Below are positions 41,379 to 62,976 of a DNA stretch of 64,000 nucleotides, piece by piece. This DNA is from a virus. The position numbers and the translations under genes were made by a program. The notes beneath the pieces are model-generated. The model was not told the origin of the DNA. It saw only the letters and a program-made list of their open reading frames with translations, and did not search any database. Position 1 is the first letter of the stretch, and each line of letters opens with the position of its first letter. The stretch spans positions 64,001 through 128,000 of IMG/VR virus record IMGVR_UViG_3300023174_006137. One strand, written 5' to 3'.

Positions 41379-42962
41379 TTAATTTTTATAACTATCTTTT
41401 AAAGAAACTGTTTTTATAAAACTTCCATCTAAATCTTTGGTATAATAACCATTTCTTACAAATTGTGCAGCTTTACCAACTTCACAATTATCAATATTTA
41501 ATTCACTATAAATTATAGTTTCATGTATTACATCATTCTTTATTTCACAATTATTATCTAAAAATAAATCTTCATACTCCTTAACCATAATTTCTTTATT
41601 ATATAACGCAGAAACCCAGTGAATTGTTCCTTTTACTTTTCTATCTGACTTGCCAGATTTTGTATCTACATCAATAGTACATCTTATTTCAATTATATTA
41701 CCAATGCTATCTTTGATGATTTCATTTGCTTTTATAATATAAGCACCTTTTAATCTAACTTCGCCACCTAATTTTAAACGATAATATTTCTTATCGGCTT
41801 CTTCTCTAAAATCTTCATTTTCAATATAGATTTCTTTTGTAAAAATAACTTCTCTTTTACCATCATTTGGATTTTCAGGATTATTTTCAATTTCACAAAT
41901 TTCAGAACCTTCATAATTCGTTAAAACAACCTTAATAGGATTGAAAATGCACATATATCGATATGCTATTTTATTTAAATGATTCCTTAAACATTCTTCT
42001 AATAATTTATAATCAATTACAGATTCTCTTTTAGTATAACCAATGATTTCACAGAAATTTTTAATAGATTCTGGAGTATAGCCTCTTCTTTTTAACCCAG
42101 ATAATGTTAATAATCTTGGATCGTTTAATGTATACCCTTCTTCAATCAAAGACTTAAACTTCCTTTTACTCATTAAATGATTAACAACATTCAATCTAGC
42201 AAATTCGGTTTCTTCTGGTAAATTATTTTCTAAATCTAAATTATTTAATATCCAATTATAAAGAGGACGATGTAATTCAAATTCCAAAGTGCATAAAGAA
42301 TCTGTTATTCCTTCTATGTAATCTGAAATAGGATGAGCAAAATCATACATAGGATAAATACACCATTTATTACCAGTATTATGATGTTCTTCTTTAATTA
42401 TTCTATATATGATAGGATCTCTCATGCACATTATCGGACTTGACATATCAATTTTCAATCTCAAAGTGCAATGACTTTCTCCATAGATACCATTTTTCAT
42501 ATTTTCAAATCTATATAAATTATCCTCAATACTTCTATTTCTATAGATAGAATCTATACCTGGTTTCACTAAATCTCCTTTATTATTGGCTATTTCTTCG
42601 GAAGTTGAATCATCAACATAAGCTAACCCTTTATTTATTAATTTAACAGTACAATTATAAATATAATCAAAATAATTGGATGTATATTCTATTTTGGAAG
42701 GGTTAAAGCCTAACCATTTAATATCTGCTAAAATTGCATCAATATATTCGGATTTTTCTGCACAAGGATTTGTGTCATCAAATCTTAAATTACATGAGCC
42801 ATTATATTTTTCCGCTAAACCAAAATTTAAACACATCGATTTTGCATGACCGAGATGTAAAATAAAATTGGGTTCCGGTGGAAAACGCAATACTGGATTG
42901 ATTCCATTATTTACTTTTTCTAATATTTTTTCTTCTATAAAATTCATAATTTTTAATACCAT
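41379..42962 (-). CDS. glnS: Glutaminyl-tRNA synthetase
   Basis: RFPPEPN, HLGH, RFDDTNP, YPMYDFAH, CTLEF, MSKRK, KVKGTIHWVS. Confidence 0.95.
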   Translation of the reverse strand: MVLKIMNFIEEKILEKVNNGINPVLRFPPEPNFILHLGHAKSMCLNFGLAEKYNGSCNLRFDDTNPCAEKSEYIDAILADIKWLGFNPSKIEYTSNYFDYIYNCTVKLINKGLAYVDDSTSEEIANNKGDLVKPGIDSIYRNRSIEDNLYRFENMKNGIYGESHCTLRLKIDMSSPIMCMRDPIIYRIIKEEHHNTGNKWCIYPMYDFAHPISDYIEGITDSLCTLEFELHRPLYNWILNNLDLENNLPEETEFARLNVVNHLMSKRKFKSLIEEGYTLNDPRLLTLSGLKRRGYTPESIKNFCEIIGYTKRESVIDYKLLEECLRNHLNKIAYRYMCIFNPIKVVLTNYEGSEICEIENNPENPNDGKREVIFTKEIYIENEDFREEADKKYYRLKLGGEVRLKGAYIIKANEIIKDSIGNIIEIRCTIDVDTKSGKSDRKVKGTIHWVSALYNKEIMVKEYEDLFLDNNCEIKNDVIHETIIYSELNIDNCEVGKAAQFVRNGYYTKDLDGSFIKTVSLKDSYKN

Positions 42963-42966
42963 TTTG

Positions 42967-43037
42967 TAATCCCATACTGGAACGATCAGTATTCTTCAGG
43001 GTCAAAACCTGACGCATCACCTTAATGCTTTGGGATT
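42967..43037 (-). tRNA. tRNA-Gln(UUG)
   Basis: Cloverleaf; anticodon arm TCAGG TTTTGAC CCTGA. Confidence 0.8.
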
Positions 43038-43044
43038 ATATTTG

Positions 43045-43116
43045 TAGTCGGACTAGGAGTCAAACCCAGTCTACGAAGGCCAAATCTTCGTGTGCGCATC
43101 GGTACACTATCCAACT
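43045..43116 (-). tRNA. tRNA-Gln(UUG)
   Basis: Anticodon arm CGAAG ATTTGGC CTTCG. Confidence 0.75.
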
Positions 43117-43122
43117 ATGTAG

Positions 43123-43205
43123 TTGCCAAGACAGGACTCGAACCTGTATTTACTTCTCGTCCTCCGCTTTCAAAGAGCGGGATGCTACCATTACACCACT
43201 TGGCA
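43123..43205 (-). tRNA. tRNA-Gln(UUG), long variable region
   Basis: CCGCT CTTTGAA AGCGG; U1-A72. Confidence 0.85.
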
Positions 43206-43207
43206 AT

Positions 43208-43243
43208 AAAAAAACCGTTCAATCAAATCAGATTGAACGGTTT
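43208..43243 (-). terminator. Attenuator terminator of the Gln module
   Basis: AAACCGTTCAATC tgattt GATTGAACGGTTT followed by a U tract. Confidence 0.9.
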
Positions 43244-43264
43244 AGACAATAAAATCTCACACCA

Positions 43265-43312
43265 TCAATCTGGTTTAAATAATTGTTGTTGTTGAGAAGT
43301 TAAAGTTTTCAT
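43265..43312 (-). promoter_or_regulatory. Leader peptide MKTLTSQQQQLFKPD (Gln attenuator)
   Basis: Four tandem CAA codons; 3' CAGATTGA is complementary to terminator TCAATCTG. Confidence 0.8.
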
Positions 43313-44191
43313 TTTTTTATAATAATTTATAAATTTTTCTATTTCAGTTTTTATATATTCTTTTCCTGCTTCGTTATTTATTGATTGCCATTTTATTCTA
43401 TAAATATTAAAATGTTTTAATAAATTTTTATCTCTTTCATTATCATGTTCAACTCTATATTCATGTTGTTTACCATCTATTTCTAAATCAATATTTCCTT
43501 CTTTAATATAGAAATCTAAAAAATAATTTCCATTTCCTTCTATATTATATTCTTTTTTTATTATAGTTTTATTAGGCTCATATTTTATGCCATTGTTTTC
43601 TAATACCATTTTGAAAAACTTTTCTGGATAACTTTCAATATTTCTTGATTGCCAACCTTTATGTGTTCCATTTTTTATTCTTTCTTTAACTGAATCTCTT
43701 AATTTATTTTTATATTCCTCGCTTGTAAATTGACACTTTTTACTACAATATTTTCGATTAATATTTTTTCCAGTATATGTTTTTTTACAATTGGGACATT
43801 CTTTTATGTATTCCTCTTCATTATATTTTTTATTCCACGGAATATTATTTTTTAATGTATTAGATATTTTTTTACATCTTTCCTCATATTTTTCTTTATC
43901 AAAATTAGTATTATTTTTACCATGTTGATAATAAGAATTTGAACATGACGATGAACATGTTTTCTTACCATTTTCTGTTGTTTCAAATTCGTTAAAACAA
44001 ATAGGACAAATAAGTTTAATTTTTTGGTATTTTCTATTTTTGTTTTTATTTTCAAAAATAGATTTATTAAATCCATTTTGTTCTAAAACTTCTGCTGCCT
44101 TTTTATTGCTTCGTCCATTAGAATAACCATATAATTTTATGGCTAAGTCATTAATGGAAAAACTTTCATTTATAATTTTAATGATATCCAT
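43265..44191 (-). CDS. Homing-endonuclease-like protein (Zn fingers + DUF559/Vsr-like nuclease), in frame with the Gln leader
   Basis: CxxC/CSxxC repeats, SYPE, FLDFY...LEIDGKQH...RD; start set at ATG 44191 after AATATATA. Confidence 0.75.
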   Translation of the reverse strand: MDIIKIINESFSINDLAIKLYGYSNGRSNKKAAEVLEQNGFNKSIFENKNKNRKYQKIKLICPICFNEFETTENGKKTCSSSCSNSYYQHGKNNTNFDKEKYEERCKKISNTLKNNIPWNKKYNEEEYIKECPNCKKTYTGKNINRKYCSKKCQFTSEEYKNKLRDSVKERIKNGTHKGWQSRNIESYPEKFFKMVLENNGIKYEPNKTIIKKEYNIEGNGNYFLDFYIKEGNIDLEIDGKQHEYRVEHDNERDKNLLKHFNIYRIKWQSINNEAGKEYIKTEIEKFINYYKKMKTLTSQQQQLFKPD

Positions 44192-44232
44192 AAGATATAT
44201 ATTAAAATTGTCGGAGAAAGTTTTTCCGAACC

Positions 44233-44311
44233 TGGTCGAGAAGGTGAGATTCGAACTCACGAGTTGTCTTGGTCCCAAACCAAGCCGGGTACCTGACTCC
44301 CGAACTTCTCG
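44233..44311 (-). tRNA. tRNA-Pro(UGG)
   Basis: CTTGG TTTGGGA CCAAG; encoded CCA. Confidence 0.85.
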
Positions 44312-44317
44312 TTTTTG

Positions 44318-44391
44318 CGGTCTGTACCGGGTACGATCCGGCAACCTTCCCCGTGACAGGGGGATATTGTATCCATTTCTACTAACAGACC
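44318..44391 (-). tRNA. tRNA-Asp(GUC)
   Basis: TCCCC CTGTCAC GGGGA; G73. Confidence 0.85.
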
Positions 44392-44399
44392 ATTTTTTG

Positions 44400-44477
44400 C
44401 AGTGACGACGGGACTCGAACCCGCAAACCTCCCGATAGACAGTCGGGCATTCTGACCTAAAATTGAACTACGCCACT
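44400..44477 (-). tRNA. tRNA-Asp(GUC)
   Basis: CCCGA CTGTCTA TCGGG; G73. Confidence 0.85.
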
Positions 44478-44483
44478 ATTTCG

Positions 44484-44568
44484 TCTGGGTGACAGGGCTC
44501 GAACCTGCATAAGATGTTAATCATTCTCCTGTCCAAGAGGAGTCGGCTTCCATTGCCTTCACACCCAG
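44484..44568 (-). tRNA. tRNA-Pro(UGG), long variable region
   Basis: CTCCT CTTGGAC AGGAG; C1-G72, A73. Confidence 0.8.
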
Positions 44569-44573
44569 AAATT

Positions 44574-44607
44574 AAAAAAACCTATTAGCTTTTGACTAAC
44601 AGGTTTT
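44574..44607 (-). terminator. Attenuator terminator of the Pro/Asp module
   Basis: AAAACCTGTTAG tcaaaag CTAATAGGTTTTTTT. Confidence 0.85.
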
Positions 44608-44631
44608 AAATAATACAATTTAAAAAATCGT

Positions 44632-44721
44632 TTATATAAACACATAGTTAGTCCACTCCTTATCAGGATCCTGATCCGGTTGTTGTTGTGGAACTACTTG
44701 TATGTTTATATTGTTTTTCAT
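44632..44721 (-). promoter_or_regulatory. Leader peptide MKNNINIQVVPQQQPDQDPDKEWTNYVFI
   Basis: 10-codon P/Q/D-only tract; GACTAAC is complementary to terminator GTTAGTC; promoter at 44783-44813. Confidence 0.8.
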
Positions 44722-44782
44722 TTTATTATAGTATATATTGTTTTTAAAAAATGCTTTTTTGCTATTGTTTAATTTTGTAGTG

Positions 44783-44813
44783 CAAAGATACATAAAAGTT
44801 TGAAATCAGCAAA
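44783..44813 (-). promoter_or_regulatory. Bacteroidota-type promoter of the Pro/Asp/Gln tRNA operon
   Basis: TTTG-N19-TATCTTTG. Confidence 0.8.
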
Positions 44814-44867
44814 AATTTTTTTTTTAATTTTTACATATTAATTTGCATAATATAATATATAGTAAAT

Positions 44868-46751
44868 ATGGATAAAGTAATTCTTGATACTACGAATAAT
44901 GAAACAATTATTAAACCAGTTTATATCTATAAAGTTTTCAAAATAAAAGATATTGAAATACTTGGTAGAGGTGATACTGATAATTTAGATATTTATTATC
45001 GTTTTTCACAAGATTATGGTAGAACAATTTCGGATTTTATTCTTTTCACAAAAGAAAATATTATTTCAGAAAGAATTAATCCAATTCGTTTTTTCCAAAT
45101 TGAGTATTATTTAAGATATACCGGAACTTCTACCGCTACTATCTTTGATATAAATTTAGTTGGCGATTTCCAAAATGTATCATTAGACGGACAAAAAAGT
45201 AATGTATATGGCATAAGAGAAAACTGCAATTGCCTTATTGCTGGTTTAATTTGTGACCCTTCAACTTTACCAGAAGGTATGCCACCAGGTGGAATATCAA
45301 GTATGTTAATGTCTAACTATAATACTGAATCGACTAATTTGCCTGCTTTAAATAGCGAACAAATTGCTAATTTATATAATCCATATCAACAAGCACAAGC
45401 ACTTACTTTATTTAATAAAATGAGTAATGATGTTTCTAATTTATTTGGGCATGATGTTATTTATGTATTAACGGATCCAGATCAAAATGGAACTGATTAT
45501 ACATTCCATGAATATACTATACAAAATTATATTTGTGATGCTAAATTAAAAGTAAATGTTGATAATAACCAATTTCCAGATAATACCGGTGCTTTAAATA
45601 ATTTTGATTTATCTTTATTTGATAGTTTTGAAATTAATATAACAAAAGATGCTTTTAAAGCGGCTTTTGGTATTGAAAAAAGACCAGGTTTAAATGATGT
45701 TATATGGTTTTGTAATATAAATAAATTATATACTATTGAACATGCACAGGCAATAAGAAATTTTAATAATTATTCAATCTACTATAAAGTGATACTTAAA
45801 AAATTCAATCAAAAAGCAAACATTATTGGAGCAACACAAGAAATACAAGATGTGCTGGATAATTTAACAAAAAATACCACATTAGAAGAATTAATGGGGC
45901 TAGAGAATATGCAAGATAAAAAGGCAACCGCAAATAACGAACAATTAAGACCGGCAAATAAAGCACAAGAAACTTTAAGAGTTGATATTTATTCAAATAT
46001 AGAACAAGAAATTATACAAAATGCTTCAGTGACAGTTGCTAAAACTTGTTATGAAATGTCAACGGTTCAATTTAACGAACCAGGTGTTGTATATAGAAAC
46101 TTTAAATTTTTCTATCAAAAATCAGACAATATAGGTTTTAGTTGTTGGTTTAATATAAATAATTTAACTATGAACGATACTTACCATTTCTTTAATTATA
46201 TGGATGTTTCAAATAATGGTTTTAAGTTTTATATGTTAGGAAATAGTATCTTTGTTAATCTTAACGGTGTAGCAAACGAATTTAGTTTAATAGATGAAAA
46301 TTGTAATAATGCTAATTTAGCAAGTAATGTTTTATCAGAAAATGTATGGTATGCTTTGGTAGTTAATATAAATCAAAGATTAAATGGTTTAGAGGTTTAT
46401 TTATATAAGAGAAATGTTGATTACGAAGAAGATGCTGAATCATTATCGTCATCTAAATTAAAATTAGTAAACAAAGTAATTAAGGGTGTTGAACCAAGTA
46501 TTTTAGATATATCACCAGATACTAATGCCAATATATTAGGTTCTGATATGAAAATCACTAATTTAAGATTGTTTAATGATGTTATACCAGAAGCACAACA
46601 TAATAAAATGTTAAACTTATTCTTAATAGGTGCTGATTATAAATATGCCATATTTACAGATAATGCAAACCAAGATGCAAATATGCCATCTAATATAGAT
46701 AGCAGAATAAATTATAATAAAATTAGAAGAGGAACTGGATTAGATAACTAA
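44868..46751 (+). CDS. Virion protein: T4 gp14 neck-like domain + LamG-like C-terminus
   Basis: FGHDVIYV, KRPGLNDVIWF...KLY; FSCWFN, NVWYALVV, ITNLRLFN. Confidence 0.55.
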   Translation: MDKVILDTTNNETIIKPVYIYKVFKIKDIEILGRGDTDNLDIYYRFSQDYGRTISDFILFTKENIISERINPIRFFQIEYYLRYTGTSTATIFDINLVGDFQNVSLDGQKSNVYGIRENCNCLIAGLICDPSTLPEGMPPGGISSMLMSNYNTESTNLPALNSEQIANLYNPYQQAQALTLFNKMSNDVSNLFGHDVIYVLTDPDQNGTDYTFHEYTIQNYICDAKLKVNVDNNQFPDNTGALNNFDLSLFDSFEINITKDAFKAAFGIEKRPGLNDVIWFCNINKLYTIEHAQAIRNFNNYSIYYKVILKKFNQKANIIGATQEIQDVLDNLTKNTTLEELMGLENMQDKKATANNEQLRPANKAQETLRVDIYSNIEQEIIQNASVTVAKTCYEMSTVQFNEPGVVYRNFKFFYQKSDNIGFSCWFNINNLTMNDTYHFFNYMDVSNNGFKFYMLGNSIFVNLNGVANEFSLIDENCNNANLASNVLSENVWYALVVNINQRLNGLEVYLYKRNVDYEEDAESLSSSKLKLVNKVIKGVEPSILDISPDTNANILGSDMKITNLRLFNDVIPEAQHNKMLNLFLIGADYKYAIFTDNANQDANMPSNIDSRINYNKIRRGTGLDN

Positions 46752-47050
46752 ATTTTATCAGTAATTTTAGAAATACTTTTATCAATATCTGCAAAAGATG
46801 GAATAGAATTTCCTATATAAATAAATGCAATATTCTTATTCTTAACTATTGATTTCCTAACAGATTCTTTCATTAATCTTTTGATGTAATTTCTATCAAC
46901 CGCTCTTTTGAACTTTTTAGAAGAAACCGCAAAAAGAAATGAACTATTAGATTCAGATTCTAAAATTTTAACCATTATTACATCACTTGAAATGGTTTTA
47001 CCATTTTTAAACAATTCGTCAATTATTATCTTATTTTTTAAAGTTTTCAT
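46748..47050 (-). CDS. rnpA: Ribonuclease P protein component
   Basis: FAVSSKKFKRAVDRNYIKRLMKES (RNR motif), LFKNGK, AFIY. Confidence 0.85.
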   Translation of the reverse strand: MKTLKNKIIIDELFKNGKTISSDVIMVKILESESNSSFLFAVSSKKFKRAVDRNYIKRLMKESVRKSIVKNKNIAFIYIGNSIPSFADIDKSISKITDKI

Positions 47051-47054
47051 AAAA

Positions 47055-47426
47055 TTAATTTAATAAATCATTAATTCGGTTATATCGTCTCCATGCTATT
47101 CGTGCTGATTCATATTTTTCAGTTCCTTTTACTGATTGTCCAGTATAAGTTCCAATATATGCTATGTTTCCAGTCATTATTTTTTTATCTAAACATTCAT
47201 CACATATAGCTATGATGAATTCATCCGTATCAAATTTACTACCATATCCGGCACTAATTAGGTCTACTACACCATCTTTCCACATTTGTGAGCCAGCATC
47301 TAATATAATTTCTTCTTCTGGTTCACCATGAAATCCTATCTTTTCTTTATTGAAAACAACATCTTCTTCATTTTTACCTTCTATAAGATATAATGAAATC
47401 TTTTTATCGCAACAAATACACATCAT
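47055..47426 (-). CDS. Hypothetical protein (CxxC pairs; C-terminal RYNRINDLL)
   Basis: Host-type promoter at 47432-47463. Confidence 0.6.
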   Translation of the reverse strand: MMCICCDKKISLYLIEGKNEEDVVFNKEKIGFHGEPEEEIILDAGSQMWKDGVVDLISAGYGSKFDTDEFIIAICDECLDKKIMTGNIAYIGTYTGQSVKGTEKYESARIAWRRYNRINDLLN

Positions 47427-47490
47427 AAATGCAAATATACAAAGAAAAAACTAATTAAACAAAAAATATTTAAAGTAATATATAAATTAA

Positions 47491-48099
47491 ATGAAAAAAA
47501 GGCAACATATAGTAAAGACATTTGAAGGGTTTACAAAAGATAATTTAGATTATTTAGTGACATATAAAAAAACATATGTTAGACAACAATTTAGAGACAG
47601 GGGAATTGATTTGAATAAAATACAAAAAATAGTTAAAGAATATGATATAAGCAACTTTCGTCTTGACGATAAAGGTTATGGCATTTTTATCTATCCAGAC
47701 ACAAACTTTATTGAATTATTAAAACAATTAGACCCAAGAGTCGATGATAATATGAGATTTTATTTAACCTTAACAGGTGATATGAACCAAATAGATTTTA
47801 GCGATGGATTACCACCTTATTTAAGAGGTCTTGGCGTAGCGTACAAATTATATAAAATGACTATAGAAAAAAATAAGTATATAACTTCTGATAGATTCTC
47901 ATCATTGCATGCTTGGAACTTATGGTATAATTTATTACAAGATAACGATTTATATTGTTTTACTTCTAATATAAGGAGTGGTTTAATAAGCAAAAAAGTA
48001 AATGAAGAGGAATTAAAAGAAATAATTAATAAATTAAGTGTAGGAGTTGAAAATATAGAATACGATGACGACTTAAAAGAAAAATTAGGTATCTGTTAA
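47491..48099 (+). CDS. Hypothetical protein, GNAT-like motif
   Basis: YLRGLGVAYKLY...SD...AWNLW. Confidence 0.45.
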   Translation: MKKRQHIVKTFEGFTKDNLDYLVTYKKTYVRQQFRDRGIDLNKIQKIVKEYDISNFRLDDKGYGIFIYPDTNFIELLKQLDPRVDDNMRFYLTLTGDMNQIDFSDGLPPYLRGLGVAYKLYKMTIEKNKYITSDRFSSLHAWNLWYNLLQDNDLYCFTSNIRSGLISKKVNEEELKEIINKLSVGVENIEYDDDLKEKLGIC

Positions 48100-48222
48100 A
48101 ATTATATCATAATTATATAATGACATTTTTGTAAATTATTTTTTATGTAGGTTTAACTACTAACTATTATATGTATTTTTTATCAAAAATTTGGTTAGGC
48201 AACTATTTTAATATATAGGTTT

Positions 48223-49164
48223 ATGTGTTTCAATAGTAAAAAACATTTTATTAAAAACTTTAAGCAGTTTGAGAATAATTTACTAGATATAAAAGAAGAA
48301 TTAGTTAATTTTCCTTTAAAAAAATTAATTTATATAATAAAGCAAAAAATTGAAGGAACTATTAAAGAAGGTGAAAATAAATATAATTTTGATTTCTCAC
48401 AAGAAAAATTTTTACCTATAAAGTTTAACCTTATTATTAATTATATAATCGAAGAAGATATTGATTATGGTGGCTATATCGATTACAACGAAATAAAAAG
48501 AGTTAAGTTTAATAATTTAAATTTACATATTGATATACAAGATAAAGAAATAGACTATACTTCTGTTTATTCAACAATAGGGCATGGATTAAAACATGTG
48601 TTTGATATATACCACAACGACCCTTACCAAGAAGTAAATAAAATGAAAATTATTTGGAAACTTCATGGTGATAATCAAAATAAGTATTTAAGAGAAATAC
48701 TTTATTTGACATATTTAGCATTAGGTTATGAGTTAGAGGCAAGAAATAATGAACTATATAATAAGTTAAGATGGCTAAAAAGTTTTGATAGTTCTATGAT
48801 TATGGACGAGTTTAAAAAAACATATGTATATAAATCTTTAATGGAATTAAAAAATTTTAATATTGATGAAATATTAAATAATGTAGATAATAATGAATTA
48901 ACTGAATTTCTAACAGAATACGCTAATAAAATCTATGATAGAGATATAGATACCCCTAAAAACTTTTTAGAAAGAATAAAAGGTTTCTTTAATGCCGTTG
49001 GCGATGCTTATTTAAGCAAAGCAAAAGACATTTTAGATGAATTAATAATAGACAATAGACCTTATATGGAAACTAAAAAACACACATTTTTTTATGAATA
49101 TCTTTATTTACTTAATTTAGAAAAAGAAATGGAAGAAATTATTGAAAAAATTAATTTAAATTAA
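48223..49164 (+). CDS. Zincin-like protein with degenerate HGxxH motif
   Basis: IGHGLKHVF...YELEAR; resembles 54576..55514. Confidence 0.5.
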   Translation: MCFNSKKHFIKNFKQFENNLLDIKEELVNFPLKKLIYIIKQKIEGTIKEGENKYNFDFSQEKFLPIKFNLIINYIIEEDIDYGGYIDYNEIKRVKFNNLNLHIDIQDKEIDYTSVYSTIGHGLKHVFDIYHNDPYQEVNKMKIIWKLHGDNQNKYLREILYLTYLALGYELEARNNELYNKLRWLKSFDSSMIMDEFKKTYVYKSLMELKNFNIDEILNNVDNNELTEFLTEYANKIYDRDIDTPKNFLERIKGFFNAVGDAYLSKAKDILDELIIDNRPYMETKKHTFFYEYLYLLNLEKEMEEIIEKINLN

Positions 49165-49216
49165 ATTAATAAAAGGATAAAATAAAAAACAAAGCAAAAA
49201 TGCTTTGTTTTTTATT

Positions 49217-49462
49217 TTAAATTGTTGGATATACAATCAAATCACCAGACTTAATCGCTTTGTTAACATACCTCAACAAGGTTATTGCCTTATATTCTGC
49301 TTCAAATTTTGTTGTACCAACATCATCCGTGTCTGATAAATCTACAGGAAATAAATATGTTTTACTATTGGTAATAACTTTATACCATAAACATTGACAA
49401 CATGCATAAGCAAATTTTGCTTTAGTGTCTTTAACGACATCTAATACTTTAATCTTTTCCAT
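49217..49462 (-). CDS. Hypothetical protein
   Basis: ORF; terminator at ~49185-49214. Confidence 0.6.
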   Translation of the reverse strand: MEKIKVLDVVKDTKAKFAYACCQCLWYKVITNSKTYLFPVDLSDTDDVGTTKFEAEYKAITLLRYVNKAIKSGDLIVYPTI

Positions 49463-49517
49463 TTTAAATAATTTATTTTTGTGATCATACTAAAGATATT
49501 TCACTCTAATATGTCTG

Positions 49518-49590
49518 TAGTTCCAACGAGATTCGAACTCGTATCATAATTTTAGGAGAATTATACCTTATCCTGTTAGGCTATGGAACC
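49518..49590 (-). tRNA. tRNA-Arg(CCU)
   Basis: TAATT CTCCTAA AATTA. Confidence 0.85.
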
Positions 49591-49596
49591 ATTTTG

Positions 49597-49682
49597 TACC
49601 GCTAGCAGGACTCGAACCTGCACTATCTTTACAGAAAACGGATTATGAGTCCGTCACAATTACCACATCTGCTCATAGCGGC
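49597..49682 (-). tRNA. tRNA-Met(CAU), long variable arm
   Basis: ACGGA CTCATAA TCCGT. Confidence 0.8.
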
Positions 49683-49688
49683 ATATTT

Positions 49689-49967
49689 TTATACTCTTTT
49701 ACTTCTCCATTTAATAAACTTTTTCACATCAGGATGTTCTAAAAGTTTTTCCTTTGTATTATATGTTAAGCCCATTTCTTTTTCAGTTATGAACCGATGT
49801 ATTTGCCCATGACAATAAAATTTACATATCCAAATACCATGATTTTTCAAATAATCTTTATCATAATTCTTTTTGAAGAACTTATTTGAATGCAAAGTCC
49901 TTGGAATTAAATGATGAAAATTTAAATAATCATTTGTTGAGCCACACAATTCACATTTATCTATCAT
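49689..49967 (-). CDS. Small HNH-like protein
   Basis: CELC...FHHLIP...IC..CH..IH. Confidence 0.7.
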   Translation of the reverse strand: MIDKCELCGSTNDYLNFHHLIPRTLHSNKFFKKNYDKDYLKNHGIWICKFYCHGQIHRFITEKEMGLTYNTKEKLLEHPDVKKFIKWRSKRV

Positions 49968-50107
49968 AATATATCATAATAATACCAAGTATTATCATAT
50001 TTTTCATTAACAATTTTTGTTATTTCATCTTTTTCCAATTCTTCATTAATAAAAAATGATTCATTTTTCAAATATTCTAAATCAAAATAAACTACTATTT
50101 CAATCAT
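49964..50107 (-). CDS. Small hypothetical protein (47 aa)
   Basis: MIEIVVYFDLEY...; ATGA-coupled to the HNH gene. Confidence 0.4.
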   Translation of the reverse strand: MIEIVVYFDLEYLKNESFFINEELEKDEITKIVNEKYDNTWYYYDIL

Positions 50108-50154
50108 AATTTTTTTTTTATTTTAATCAATATCTATACCTTTTTGAATTACTA

Positions 50155-50182
50155 ACTCCTGCGTATACCAATTCCGCCATAT
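50155..50182 (-). pseudogene. tRNA remnant (D-arm fragment)
   Basis: TGGCGGAATTGGTATACGC without anticodon or T arm. Confidence 0.5.
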
Positions 50183-50190
50183 GATAATCG

Positions 50191-50263
50191 TAGCTCTGAT
50201 GGGAGTCGAACCCACACATTTCCGAGTTTGAATCGGTTGCCTCGCCAGTTGGGCTACAGAGCC
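50191..50263 (-). tRNA. tRNA-Leu(CAA), short variable loop
   Basis: CCGA TTCAAAC TCGG. Confidence 0.75.
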
Positions 50264-50269
50264 ATTTTG

Positions 50270-50351
50270 TGCAGAAGAAGGGAGTCGAACCCTCACACCT
50301 TTCGGCACAGCAACCTCAATGCTGCGTGTTTACCAATTACACCACTTCTGC
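50270..50351 (-). tRNA. tRNA-Leu(GAG)
   Basis: CAGCA TTGAGGT TGCTG; long variable arm. Confidence 0.9.
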
Positions 50352-50357
50352 AATTTG

Positions 50358-50433
50358 TAGCACTCCTGGGATTTGAACCCAGAACTCTCAGGTTCTAAAG
50401 CTGAGTCCTCTGCTCTTGTTGGGATAGAGTGCC
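50358..50433 (-). tRNA. tRNA-Leu(UAG), short variable loop
   Basis: TCAGC TTTAGAA CCTGA (C31.C39 mismatch). Confidence 0.65.
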
Positions 50434-50438
50434 ATAAT

Positions 50439-50468
50439 AAAAAAATCCCGTCAAATTGACGGGATTTT
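50439..50468 (-). terminator. Attenuator terminator of the Leu/Met/Arg module
   Basis: AAAATCCCGTCA att TGACGGGATTTTTTT. Confidence 0.9.
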
Positions 50469-50490
50469 AAATAATCTTAAAAATAAGAAT

Positions 50491-50559
50491 TTACATAAGA
50501 ATCCCGTCCAATGTTTCCATTAGATTAAGCAAATTCATATTTAGATTCCTATTTCTCAT
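50491..50559 (-). promoter_or_regulatory. Leader peptide MRNRNLNMNLLNLMETLDGILM
   Basis: Uses AGG, CTA, TTG, CTT and ATG codons; contains GACGGGATT complementary to the terminator 5' arm; promoter at 50592-50622. Confidence 0.8.
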
Positions 50560-50651
50560 ATTATTATATATTAATTTTTTATTTCTTTTTACAAAAGTAA
50601 GAAAAAATTTTTATTTTACAAATTTTTTTTAAAATTTTTTTCTTGTGGTAA

Positions 50652-50912
50652 TTAACTAAATGTTATTTGATCATAATCATACCAATCATTTTTAGTATAG
50701 TCCCAATGTCTAAAATCATAAAAACTGATATGAAAATATACTAATTTTAATAACTCTATGCGAAATTCAACACCAGCATGATCACATTTAGAACGTGACT
50801 GCAATGAAATTACAAACCAATTGGCTAGGTCATTTAAGGTTAATTGTATTTCTATACCTTTATGTAAAGTTATTTGTTTAAAAAATAAAAAGGTTTTACT
50901 AAATTTTTTCAT
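50652..50912 (-). CDS. Hypothetical protein
   Basis: ORF between tRNA clusters. Confidence 0.6.
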   Translation of the reverse strand: MKKFSKTFLFFKQITLHKGIEIQLTLNDLANWFVISLQSRSKCDHAGVEFRIELLKLVYFHISFYDFRHWDYTKNDWYDYDQITFS

Positions 50913-50947
50913 GTAGAATTATTTTTTCTTATATATAAATTTTTTTG

Positions 50948-51036
50948 AGTGCAAAACAGGATTCGAACCTGTGATGTTGGAATTTACCAAGACACTTTTG
51001 CAGAGTGCCGCTTTCGACCACTTAGACTACTTGCAC
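50948..51036 (-). tRNA. tRNA-Cys(GCA), long variable arm
   Basis: GCACT CTGCAAA AGTGT; U73. Confidence 0.85.
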
Positions 51037-51043
51037 AAATTAG

Positions 51044-51116
51044 AGGTGCTGATAAGAATTGAACTTATGTATTAGATTTTGCAGATCTACGCCTCAAACC
51101 GCTCGGCCACAGCACC
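51044..51116 (-). tRNA. tRNA-Cys(GCA)
   Basis: TAGAT CTGCAAA ATCTA; U73. Confidence 0.85.
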
Positions 51117-51127
51117 ATTAAATTAAG

Positions 51128-51200
51128 AGCTAAAGAACGGATTCGAACCGATATCATCTTTCATACCAAGAAAGTACCTAAACCATTCAGTCACTTCAGC
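51128..51200 (-). tRNA. tRNA-Thr(GGU)
   Basis: CTTTC TTGGTAT GAAAG. Confidence 0.85.
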
Positions 51201-51206
51201 ATTAAG

Positions 51207-51280
51207 AGCTAAGGAAGGGATTCAAACCCTCATATTCTTCATTACAAGTGAAGCGCCTAATTCAGTTCAGCCACCTTAGC
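51207..51280 (-). tRNA. tRNA-Thr(UGU)
   Basis: CTTCA CTTGTAA TGAAG. Confidence 0.85.
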
Positions 51281-51287
51281 ATTTTTG

Positions 51288-51360
51288 TTGTCCTGGTGGG
51301 TAACGATCCCACTGCCTCGATCTTATCAGGATCGCCATCTAACCATTGATATACAGGACA
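51288..51360 (-). tRNA. tRNA-Ile(GAU)
   Basis: CGATC CTGATAA GATCG. Confidence 0.85.
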
Positions 51361-51370
51361 ATTTTACTTG

Positions 51371-51443
51371 TTGGATTGATCGGTTACGATCCGACTCTCT
51401 ACACGATATCAGCGTGTTGCTTTCCCGATTAAGCTACAATCCA
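51371..51443 (-). tRNA. tRNA-Ile(GAU)
   Basis: ACACG CTGATAT CGTGT. Confidence 0.85.
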
Positions 51444-51448
51444 AATTG

Positions 51449-51522
51449 CGGGAGTAGTAGGACTCGAACCTACCACCATTCGATTAACAGTCGAATGCTC
51501 TAACCAACTGAGCTATACTCCC
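51449..51522 (-). tRNA. tRNA-Asn(GUU)
   Basis: TTCGA CTGTTAA TCGAA; G73. Confidence 0.9.
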
Positions 51523-51528
51523 AATTTG

Positions 51529-51601
51529 TATTCTTGATCGGTTACGATCCGATTACCTCCACCATGTCACAGTGGCGCTCTCCCAATTGAGCTACAAGAA
51601 C
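51529..51601 (-). tRNA. tRNA-Val(GAC)
   Basis: CCACT GTGACAT GGTGG. Confidence 0.85.
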
Positions 51602-51606
51602 ATTTG

Positions 51607-51678
51607 CTGATGAGGAGAATTACGATATCTCGACTCTCGCCTTAACAGGGCGACACTCTGCCTCTGAGTTACTCACCA
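51607..51678 (-). tRNA. tRNA-Asn(GUU)
   Basis: TCGCC CTGTTAA GGCGA; G73. Confidence 0.85.
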
Positions 51679-51685
51679 ATTTTTG

Positions 51686-51772
51686 TGATCCTAACAGGAT
51701 TCGAACCTGTGTTAACATTTACTGCCTCAGGCTTGTAAAACCTGCGCTCTAAACCAACTGAGCTATAGGATC
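51686..51772 (-). tRNA. tRNA-Val(UAC), long variable region
   Basis: CAGGT TTTACAA GCCTG. Confidence 0.85.
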
Positions 51773-51778
51773 AGTTTG

Positions 51779-51852
51779 TAGTTCCAGCGGGATTCAAACC
51801 CAGCATGAAGGCTTTAGAAGAGCCTCGTCCTATTCAGTTAAACGATGGAACC
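51779..51852 (-). tRNA. tRNA-Arg(UCU)
   Basis: AGGCT CTTCTAA AGCCT. Confidence 0.85.
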
Positions 51853-51857
51853 ATTTG

Positions 51858-51930
51858 TCGGAGCGCCGGGAGTCGAACCCGATTTAAGTGTGTATAAGAC
51901 ACCTGTGCTATACCGTTCTACTACACTCCG
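51858..51930 (-). tRNA. tRNA-Ile(UAU)
   Basis: GGTGT CTTATAC ACACT. Confidence 0.75.
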
Positions 51931-51936
51931 TTATTG

Positions 51937-52023
51937 TGGCTCAGGTCGGGGTCGAACCGACACGGGCGTTGCGGCCCACGGGATTTTAAGTCCCGCATGT
52001 ATTACCAGTTTCATCACTGAGCC
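51937..52023 (-). tRNA. tRNA-Leu(UAA)
   Basis: CGGGA CTTAAAA TCCCG; long variable arm. Confidence 0.9.
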
Positions 52024-52036
52024 ATTTTATTTACTT

Positions 52037-52070
52037 AAAAAAAAAATCTCAAACTTTTGAGTTTGAGATT
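52037..52070 (-). terminator. Attenuator terminator of the 13-tRNA module
   Basis: AATCTCAAACT caaa AGTTTGAGATT followed by a long U tract. Confidence 0.9.
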
Positions 52071-52093
52071 AAATCCAAATATAAAATATTTTA

Positions 52094-52195
52094 TTACACC
52101 TGTCGATTTAATCCCATACCAACTCTAATCACACATAACGTATTGTTATTTATGATTAAATTATTATTAATGGTATTTCTACAAATGTTTTTCAT
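52094..52195 (-). promoter_or_regulatory. Leader peptide MKNICRNTINNNLIINNNTLCVIRVGMGLNRQV
   Basis: Codons 3-25 encode only N,I,C,R,T,L,V; TGGGATTAAATC pairs with GATTTAATCTCA overlapping the terminator. Confidence 0.85.
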
Positions 52196-52282
52196 ATAGC
52201 TTATATATTTAAATTTAATTTTGTTTTTTTGTCTTATGGACTTTTTATTGTTTTATTTGCTTGTTTGTTTTTAATTATAATG

Positions 52283-52313
52283 CAAAGATACGCAAAAGTT
52301 TTAAAATAGCAAA
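52283..52313 (-). promoter_or_regulatory. Bacteroidota-type promoter of the 13-tRNA operon
   Basis: TTTG-N19-TATCTTTG. Confidence 0.8.
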
Positions 52314-62870: not shown

Positions 62871-62976
62871 GAGTCAAAGCAGGAATCGAACCTGCGATTG
62901 CTTTACCATACAGAGTGCCATTAGCCGTTAATCTCAACCTTTGGAGGTGCTTATGTTGCCACTACACTATTTGACT
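62871..62976 (-). tRNA. Atypical tRNA-like element (Trp CCA-like loop, expanded centre)
   Basis: Perfect acceptor AGTCAAA/TTTGACT, D arm and T arm; CTCCAAA loop but unpaired anticodon stem. Confidence 0.45.

Follow-up and report, generated by a model that had tools for sequence, protein, structure and literature searches.

Candidate leader-peptide attenuators matched in codon content to the tRNA operons of a very large phage

The window analyzed here is a DNA stretch of 64,000 nucleotides (nt), comprising bases 64001-128000 of the single IMG/VR virus record IMGVR_UViG_3300023174_006137, a contig of 159,491 bp. Its tRNA genes are organized in units consisting of a short leader open reading frame (ORF), a U-tailed hairpin, and a tRNA array, and the codon content of the leaders largely mirrors the tRNAs encoded behind them. 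We regard these units as ribosome-mediated leader-peptide transcription attenuators, which would tune each tRNA operon to the decoding speed of the codons read by its own tRNAs, and we assign this reading a probability of roughly 80%. Each tRNA set is probably made only when ribosomes read its codons slowly. The anatomy of the units, the concordance between leader codons and anticodons, a specific alternative pairing of the RNA, the spacing of the elements, and their conservation among related phages can be read directly from the DNA. From these features we infer translation of the leaders, termination of transcription at the hairpins, and a response of read-through to the supply of tRNA. The mechanism would differ from known attenuation in having tRNA genes as its target, in the resolution of single anticodons, in the nesting of units within one another, and in the missing anti-antiterminator. 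Full-text literature searches retrieved no published description of leader-peptide attenuation of tRNA genes.

Leader ORFs and the tRNA operons behind them

The contig (genome G000 in the following) contains seven units, four of which lie within the window (Table 1). It was compared with four related genomes. The close relative G001 is a 190-kb IMG/VR contig that holds all seven units in the same order as G000, and a 627-residue protein encoded by it is 71% identical to the one of G000. Three distant relatives with the system are IMGVR_UViG_3300032288_004964 (G002, 385 kb), LR745206.1, and LR756502.1, whose glutaminyl-tRNA synthetases (GlnRS) are 55-58% identical to the GlnRS of G000. The latter two, for which we use the labels W01 and W02, are a published pair of megaphages of >630 kb, which originate from a lake in France and a subsurface sample taken in Japan (PMC9723777). 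An exact scan for the leader patterns retrieved G001 only. The search of the phage collection with the glnS protein retrieved distant relatives only, and these also proved to carry the system. In total, the five genomes contain 34 units with leader, hairpin, and tRNA genes.

The window encodes 25-27 tRNAs according to ARAGORN and Infernal, all on the minus strand. A preceding sequence-only reading of the window had described four tRNA clusters with a shared layout of promoter, leader ORF of 15-33 codons, terminator hairpin, and tRNA genes on this strand. The leaders, hairpins, and tRNAs of all four units were recovered where that reading had placed them. The tRNA content also agreed, including a second tRNA-Asp (44400-44477) that was missed by ARAGORN and detected by Infernal. 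The promoter as a constant part of the layout applies to units 2, 3, and 4, which have matches to the Bacteroidota-type motif TTTG-N19-TAnnTTTG, but not to unit 1, which has no promoter of its own in G000. Similarly, the leader ORFs of units 2, 3, and 4 are free-standing and within the proposed length range, whereas the codon tract of unit 1 is the C-terminus of a 308-codon ORF. The promoter motif occurs 16 times in the window compared to an expectation of 6.2 ± 2.7, and this enrichment points to a Bacteroidota host.

The hairpins of the four units in the window have folding energies of -11 to -18 kcal/mol, and 6-21 nt separate them from the first tRNA gene. Among the units as a whole, U-tailed hairpins that fold at -11 to -21 kcal/mol are located 4-27 nt 5' of the first tRNA, and the seven main units share a canonical G+C-rich stem followed by 5-9 U in the five genomes. 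No room for a promoter is left between terminator and tRNA. Leader ORFs of 15-38 codons that start with ATG were found in 34 of the 34 units, with the leader of unit 1 being fused to a longer ORF in G000 and G001. Within operon 3, no promoter motif was found between the tRNA groups.

The concordance between leaders and tRNAs was quantified by treating all tRNAs located between two successive hairpins as one operon and by scoring the fraction of leader codons that are read by this operon. The true pairing of the seven leaders with the seven operons was the unique best among 5040 possible pairings at both the amino-acid and the codon level, in G000 as well as in G001. The distant genomes behaved alike when compared to shuffled pairings, a check that the sequence-only reading had proposed for related phages: based on raw, uncurated ARAGORN calls, the true pairing ranked 1/5040 in LR745206.1, 1/720 in LR756502.1, and 2/5040 in G002. 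For individual leaders, binomial tests against the codon usage of the genome yielded P values from 1e-8 to 0.07. The tRNAs of the own operon read 27 of 32 codons in leader 4 (0.41 expected; P = 5e-7) and 10 of 21 codons in leader 3 (0.047 expected; P = 1e-8).

The match extends to the level of isoacceptors. Among the Leu, Ser, and Arg codons of the leaders, 23 of 28 match the isoacceptor present in the own operon (12.8 expected; P = 1.3e-5). The Leu codons CTA, CTT, and TTG of leader 3 are found in front of the Leu anticodons TAG, GAG, and CAA of operon 3, while leader 4 uses only TTA for Leu and operon 4 contains the Leu anticodon TAA. TTA accounts for 68% of the Leu codons genome-wide, and it is avoided by all six Leu codons of leader 3. 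Altogether, 31 of 31 anticodon species are sampled by the leader of their own operon. Random leaders of the same length sampled 15.7 ± 2.2 species, with a maximum of 25 in 5000 trials.

The three further units with the same layout, which are located on the rest of the contig, provide an independent test and follow the same codon rule. One has an Ala/Tyr/Glu/Gly codon tract before the tRNAs for Tyr, Tyr, Glu, Glu, Gly, Gly, and Ala. In another, a Ser/Arg tract in the codons TCT, AGT, and CGC precedes tRNA Ser-GCT, Arg-ACG, and Ser-GGA. The remaining one has a His/Phe/Ser/Lys/Trp tract before the tRNAs His, His, Trp, Phe, Ser-TGA, and Lys. All 20 amino acids are thereby represented in the seven units. 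An internal control is provided by an initiator-type tRNA-Met (genome 139443-139515, minus strand), whose anticodon stem contains three G-C pairs and whose 1:72 pair is mismatched. The initiator tRNA cannot be sensed by an elongating ribosome. This gene directly follows a promoter, with no leader or terminator, and is closely followed on its strand by the His/Phe/Trp leader. It is the only tRNA that has a promoter yet no leader.

A possible additional element was found upstream of the first tRNA-Lys, where a Lys-rich mini-ORF of 9-14 codons (genome 137600-137690, minus strand) lies 10-15 nt before the tRNA gene in each of the five genomes. A hairpin without U tail adjoins its stop codon or overlaps with it, and the stem sequences of this hairpin differ among the five genomes with the pairing being kept. 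The element resembles a second-tier gate for Lys within the His/Phe/Trp operon.

Differences among the genomes affect leaders and operons together. In the distant megaphages, Tyr/Glu and Ile/Gly/Ala tRNAs are found in two operons, each with a matching leader, and the G000 counterpart has Tyr/Glu/Gly/Ala in one operon with one combined leader. In G001, tRNA-Arg(CCT) is absent from operon 3 and two N-terminal Arg codons are absent from leader 3, and a tRNA-Gln(CTG) is present together with a CAG codon in the Gln leader. At leader positions that fall within the amino-acid set of the operon, 13 of 22 substitutions between G000 and G001 stay within this set, and 9 of 34 substitutions at the other leader positions enter it. 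Across the five genomes, the frame and composition of the leaders are conserved and the peptide sequence drifts. Leader ORF 4 is kept in G001, G002, and W01, and the homologues of leader 2 in the four other genomes retain Pro, Gln, and Asp.

The Gln leader of unit 1 corresponds to the last 15 codons (43312-43265), in frame, of the 308-codon DUF559 ORF, and the same fusion exists in G001. In G002, W01, and W02, the Gln leader is free-standing and has 16-17 codons. Since it is free-standing in three distant genomes, the fusion to DUF559 in G000 and G001 looks secondary. Only about 30 nt separate the Gln leader from the preceding tRNA in G002. No separate promoter serves the Gln tRNAs and glnS, which lie behind the terminators of both unit 2 and unit 1. 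The occurrence of Gln codons in leader 2 in the five genomes is explained by this arrangement, because the Gln tRNAs and glnS are located behind a second, Gln-only gate on the same transcript.

Alternative RNA pairing and the proposed switch

When the RNA was folded without the 3' arm of the terminator, the 5' arm usually paired within the distal third of the leader ORF, and the antiterminator pairing of unit 4 listed in Table 1 was also present in such a fold. The sequence-only reading had noted that the distal part of each leader is complementary to the 5' arm of its terminator. We found this complementarity to be specific for the own unit: for the best duplex between distal leader and terminator 5' arm, the own-unit pairing was the best of all permutations (5040 for seven units) in each of the five genomes and deviated from the mean by more than 4 standard deviations. 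Covariation of antiterminator and terminator, which had been suggested as a check, was observed as well. Between G000 and G001, unit 3 shows a single-base difference in each of the leader strand, the 5' arm, and the 3' arm, and all three changes are compensatory. The pairing in unit 1 is kept in the five genomes via compensatory and G-U wobble changes, and the terminator stem differs in each of them.

The spacing of the elements is regular. The distance from the stop codon to the hairpin is 17-35 nt, and the antiterminator strand either overlaps the stop codon or has its end 2-29 nt 5' of it. Mostly 7-12 nt lie between the last control codon and the antiterminator strand, which is about the position of the leading edge of a stalled ribosome.

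According to the mechanism that we propose, a host-type promoter would start an RNA that begins with an ORF of 15-33 codons. With charged cognate tRNAs being plentiful, a ribosome would pass the control codons and cover the antiterminator strand, which either belongs to the final third of the ORF or spans its stop codon. This would permit formation of the terminator hairpin 17-35 nt past the stop codon, and transcription would end 6-21 nt before the first tRNA (OFF). If any of the sampled tRNAs were scarce or uncharged, the ribosome would stall in the control tract, and the free antiterminator strand just past its leading edge would pair with the 5' arm of the terminator, allowing the polymerase to read into the tRNAs (ON). 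An untranslated leader would lead to read-through by default, because no anti-antiterminator was detected. The switch would represent classical attenuation pared down to two alternative structures. Moreover, the gates would be nested, with the Gln tRNAs and glnS placed behind a Gln-only gate within the Pro/Asp transcript. A logic of this type (ON upon stalling, OFF upon completion of the leader) had been put forward in the sequence-only reading, and the codons, the antiterminator, the spacing, and the conservation all turned out as it would predict.

Several observations weigh against this reading. With strict wobble rules, the codon match of leaders 2 and A reaches only weak significance, and some anticodons (second Asp, first Tyr, Ser-TGA, and Ala) were assigned by eye or with relaxed ARAGORN settings. 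The initial claim that the leader codons match the downstream tRNAs is borne out by the pairing ranks and the sampled anticodon species, but five Asn codons of leader 3 have no matching tRNA in operon 3. The Gln leader is not free-standing in G000, being fused to the 308-codon ORF. In the His/Phe/Trp units of G000 and G001, 23-29 nt separate the end of the antiterminator strand from the stop codon, so that only a transiting and not a terminating ribosome would mask it. As the sequence-only reading had already noted, no upstream anti-antiterminator was detected: the pairing of the control region with the antiterminator strand had a mean z of 0.07 over the 34 units, and pairing permutations were not significant. 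This null result is at the same time a negative control for the duplex-permutation method. The lack of an anti-antiterminator makes the design different from the trp and his attenuators, and the model does not account for the synchronization of transcription and translation. Furthermore, a pause hairpin was not detectable in general among the units. Unit 2 is an exception, as its Asp-Gln-Asp-Pro-Asp control codons contain a 15-nt palindromic hairpin (44662-44676, minus strand) that is almost invariant in the five genomes and could be a pause element. Finally, since stalling senses charged tRNA, amino-acid starvation would also open the gates, without benefit to the phage.

Table 1 Features of the four leader-terminator-tRNA units in the window (positions refer to the window).
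Feature	Position	Strand	Details
Unit 4 promoter	52283..52313	-	TTTG-N19-TAnnTTTG, Bacteroidota type; motif match
Leader ORF 4	52094..52195	-	33 codons; only Asn, Ile, Cys, Arg, Thr, Leu, or Val at codons 3-25
Unit 4 antiterminator strand	52110..52125	-	pairs with terminator 5' arm; duplex -10.7 kcal/mol
Unit 4 intrinsic terminator	52037..52070 (hairpin 52070-52045)	-	11-bp stem and U run; -11.2 kcal/mol
Operon 4	50947..52023	-	13 tRNAs: Leu-TAA, Ile-TAT, Arg-TCT, Val-TAC, Asn, Val-GAC, Asn, Ile-GAT x2, Thr-TGT, Thr-GGT, Cys x2; ARAGORN, Infernal
Unit 3 promoter	50592..50622	-	motif match
Leader ORF 3	50491..50559	-	22 codons; Leu as CTA, CTT, TTG only; also Met codons and AGG codon
Unit 3 antiterminator strand	50500..50508	-	9-nt exact copy of terminator 3' arm; duplex -15.5 kcal/mol
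Unit 3 intrinsic terminator	50434..50468 (hairpin 50468-50442)	-	-15.5 kcal/mol
Operon 3	49517..50433	-	tRNA Leu-TAG, Leu-GAG, Leu-CAA, two small ORFs (one HNH-like), tRNA Met-CAT, Arg-CCT
Unit 2 promoter	44783..44813	-	motif match
Leader ORF 2	44632..44721	-	29 codons; 10-codon tract solely Pro, Gln, Asp
Unit 2 antiterminator strand	44638..44653	-	nearly invariant in five genomes
Unit 2 intrinsic terminator	44569..44607 (hairpin 44607-44577)	-	
Unit 2 tRNAs	44233..44568	-	Pro-TGG, Asp-GTC, Asp-GTC, Pro-TGG
308-codon ORF	43265..44191	-	DUF559 endonuclease-like domain (Pfam); homing-endonuclease-like insert
Unit 1 antiterminator strand	43261..43272	-	overlaps stop codon; duplex -15.6 kcal/mol
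Unit 1 intrinsic terminator	43206..43243 (hairpin 43243-43212)	-	second gate, nested in operon 2; -17.9 kcal/mol
Three tRNA-Gln (TTG) genes	42966..43205	-	
glnS (glutaminyl-tRNA synthetase)	41379..42962	-	few nt 3' of last tRNA-Gln, same attenuated unit; tblastn matches annotated phage GlnRS genes

Alternative explanations and a possible role in counter-defence

Strong terminators consisting of a hairpin and a U run are also present 3' of protein genes in G000, and short ORFs are common in AT-rich DNA (147 of at least 20 codons in 14 kb). The hairpins could hence be constitutive, partly leaky terminators or insulators, and the small ORFs could be untranslated chance frames or encode unrelated peptides. 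However, this explanation accounts neither for the codon-anticodon concordance nor for the unit-specific complementarity between leader ends and terminator arms, and it also leaves unexplained the constant spacing and the conservation of frame and composition in five genomes despite the drift of the peptides. We consider it highly improbable. A different output of the same sensors is conceivable too, if the leaders sensed decoding and thereby affected the 5' processing of tRNA precursors, their stability, or the access of RNases, or if the logic of the switch were inverse. The Lys mini-ORF abuts a conserved hairpin without U tail in the five genomes, which precludes classical intrinsic termination for at least one related element, and the terminators of the units abut the mature 5' ends of the tRNAs. 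Against an output at the level of processing, the seven main units have a canonical stem and U run in all five genomes, and the alternative pairing removes precisely the 5' arm of the terminator stem. Inverse logic is at odds with the placement of the antiterminator, which is suited for masking by a ribosome that has finished the leader and thus argues for the classical direction. Both variants appear unlikely.

The attenuators themselves could have been selected for a role in counter-defence, in which they would sense the loss of tRNAs to host anticodon nucleases or to phage-induced tRNA decay and replace the missing set. The resolution of sensing to single anticodon species (31/31) and the matching at the isoacceptor level favor this interpretation, and seven independently gated regulons would permit selective replacement. 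T4 Rnl1 repairs tRNA that was cut by the anticodon nuclease PrrC. Two RNA ligase genes were detected in G000 (genome 7854-8975 and 10384-11532), which belong to PF09511 (T4 Rnl1-type) and PF09414, and an Rnl1-type ligase is also encoded by the three relatives G002, LR745206.1, and LR756502.1. This evidence is circumstantial, and the presence of Rnl1-type ligases hints that tRNA repair matters to this phage group. However, ordinary feedback between supply and demand in a phage with 24% G+C would explain the same anatomy without any defence, RtcB is absent from all five records, and the ligase genes show no linkage with the tRNA operons. A selected role in counter-defence thus seems doubtful to us. 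In its broadest form, the attenuation reading would tentatively allow for a complete, codon-resolved monitor of decoding that is composed of seven nested gates, covers each anticodon species encoded by the phage, and selectively resynthesizes limiting tRNAs and GlnRS. Together with the Rnl1-type ligase, such a monitor might possibly counter the cleavage of tRNAs by the host or the phage's own destruction of host tRNAs, and these might be the first tRNA genes regulated by the translation of their own codons.

Comparison with known systems and further features of the contig

The units resemble the leaders trpL, hisL, leuL, pheL, thrL, and those of ilvGMEDA in having a short leader with many regulatory codons, an intrinsic terminator that precedes the structural genes, and a mutually exclusive antiterminator whose formation is set by the position of the ribosome. 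The thrL and ilvGMEDA leaders are also multivalent and, as here, sample several amino acids. In contrast to the attenuators of amino-acid operons, which control enzymes, the units described here control tRNA genes, so that the sensed molecule would be the product of the operon itself. They also differ by matching single anticodons, by the lack of a detected 1:2 hairpin with a predicted ON state of untranslated leaders, and by being phage-borne, nested, and covering all 20 amino acids. The pheM attenuator of pheST in Escherichia coli likewise adjusts part of the translation apparatus to the level of charged cognate tRNA and can be compared to unit 1, which gates glnS and tRNA-Gln. However, pheM controls a synthetase only, is chromosomal, and has the full set of alternative hairpins.

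T-box riboswitches likewise convert tRNA status into terminator read-through via an antiterminator, and are found before genes for aminoacyl-tRNA synthetases and amino-acid metabolism, but they bind uncharged tRNA directly and need neither a ribosome nor an ORF. To our knowledge, T-boxes are essentially absent from Bacteroidota. An Rfam scan of positions 40000-64000 (E <= 0.1) yielded only tRNAs and two sub-threshold chance matches. As it gave no cis-regulatory matches, the T-box and known leader families were ruled out. The stringent and growth-rate control of tRNA and rRNA operons by ppGpp/DksA also fits tRNA transcription to translational demand. Unlike the units studied here, it is global, acts at initiation, is blind to the tRNA species, and involves no leader ORF or terminator switch. 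As far as we know, tRNA genes are textbook examples of control solely at promoters and by processing. If the units indeed function as attenuators, they would represent a new regulatory logic for tRNA genes that is product-sensing and anticodon-resolved, and would explain how giant phages run large tRNA repertoires and take over translation. The model would be testable for the responses of phages to tRNA depletion, including depletion by defence systems that target tRNAs, and the units would be compact, programmable sensors of decoding speed at individual codons.

The G+C content of the window is 21-37% and mostly about 24%. CheckV estimated the completeness of the contig at 22%, and the contig is therefore a fragment of a very large phage. 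Matches to PHROGs are phage-like and comprise a helicase, an ATP-dependent protease, and phage families of unknown function. The codon TAG is recoded in some megaphages. Recoding was rejected for the contig, as glnS and the DUF559 ORF are open in translation table 11 and a default ARAGORN run gave no suppressor tRNA, although no dedicated test was made. An origin of the leaders from repeats or tRNAs was set aside without a direct test, with the promoter motif being the only evident sequence common to the units.

Homing-endonuclease-like ORFs, one of them HNH-like, are located inside the tRNA arrays at positions 43265-44191 (the DUF559 ORF) and 49689-49967 of the window, both on the minus strand, and at about 127770-128400 of the genome. 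A very A/T-rich hairpin terminator with a 19-bp stem (49178-49219, minus strand) is found 3' of the Met and Arg tRNAs and is probably the end of operon 3. Several tRNAs for Gln, Pro, Met, Cys, and Val, in which the variable region is normally short, have long variable arms and are 84-90 nt in length (43122-43205, 44483-44568, 49596-49682, 50947-51036, and 51685-51772). They usually adjoin a copy of normal length with the same anticodon, are full-length according to Infernal, and show the same oddity in G001. At positions 62871-62976 of the window, a tRNA match of 106 nt obtained with Infernal points to an insertion or intron in a tRNA. The tRNA operons B and A contain unassigned structured spacers of about 236 nt (genome 136309-136544) and 150 nt (genome about 128685-128835), respectively.

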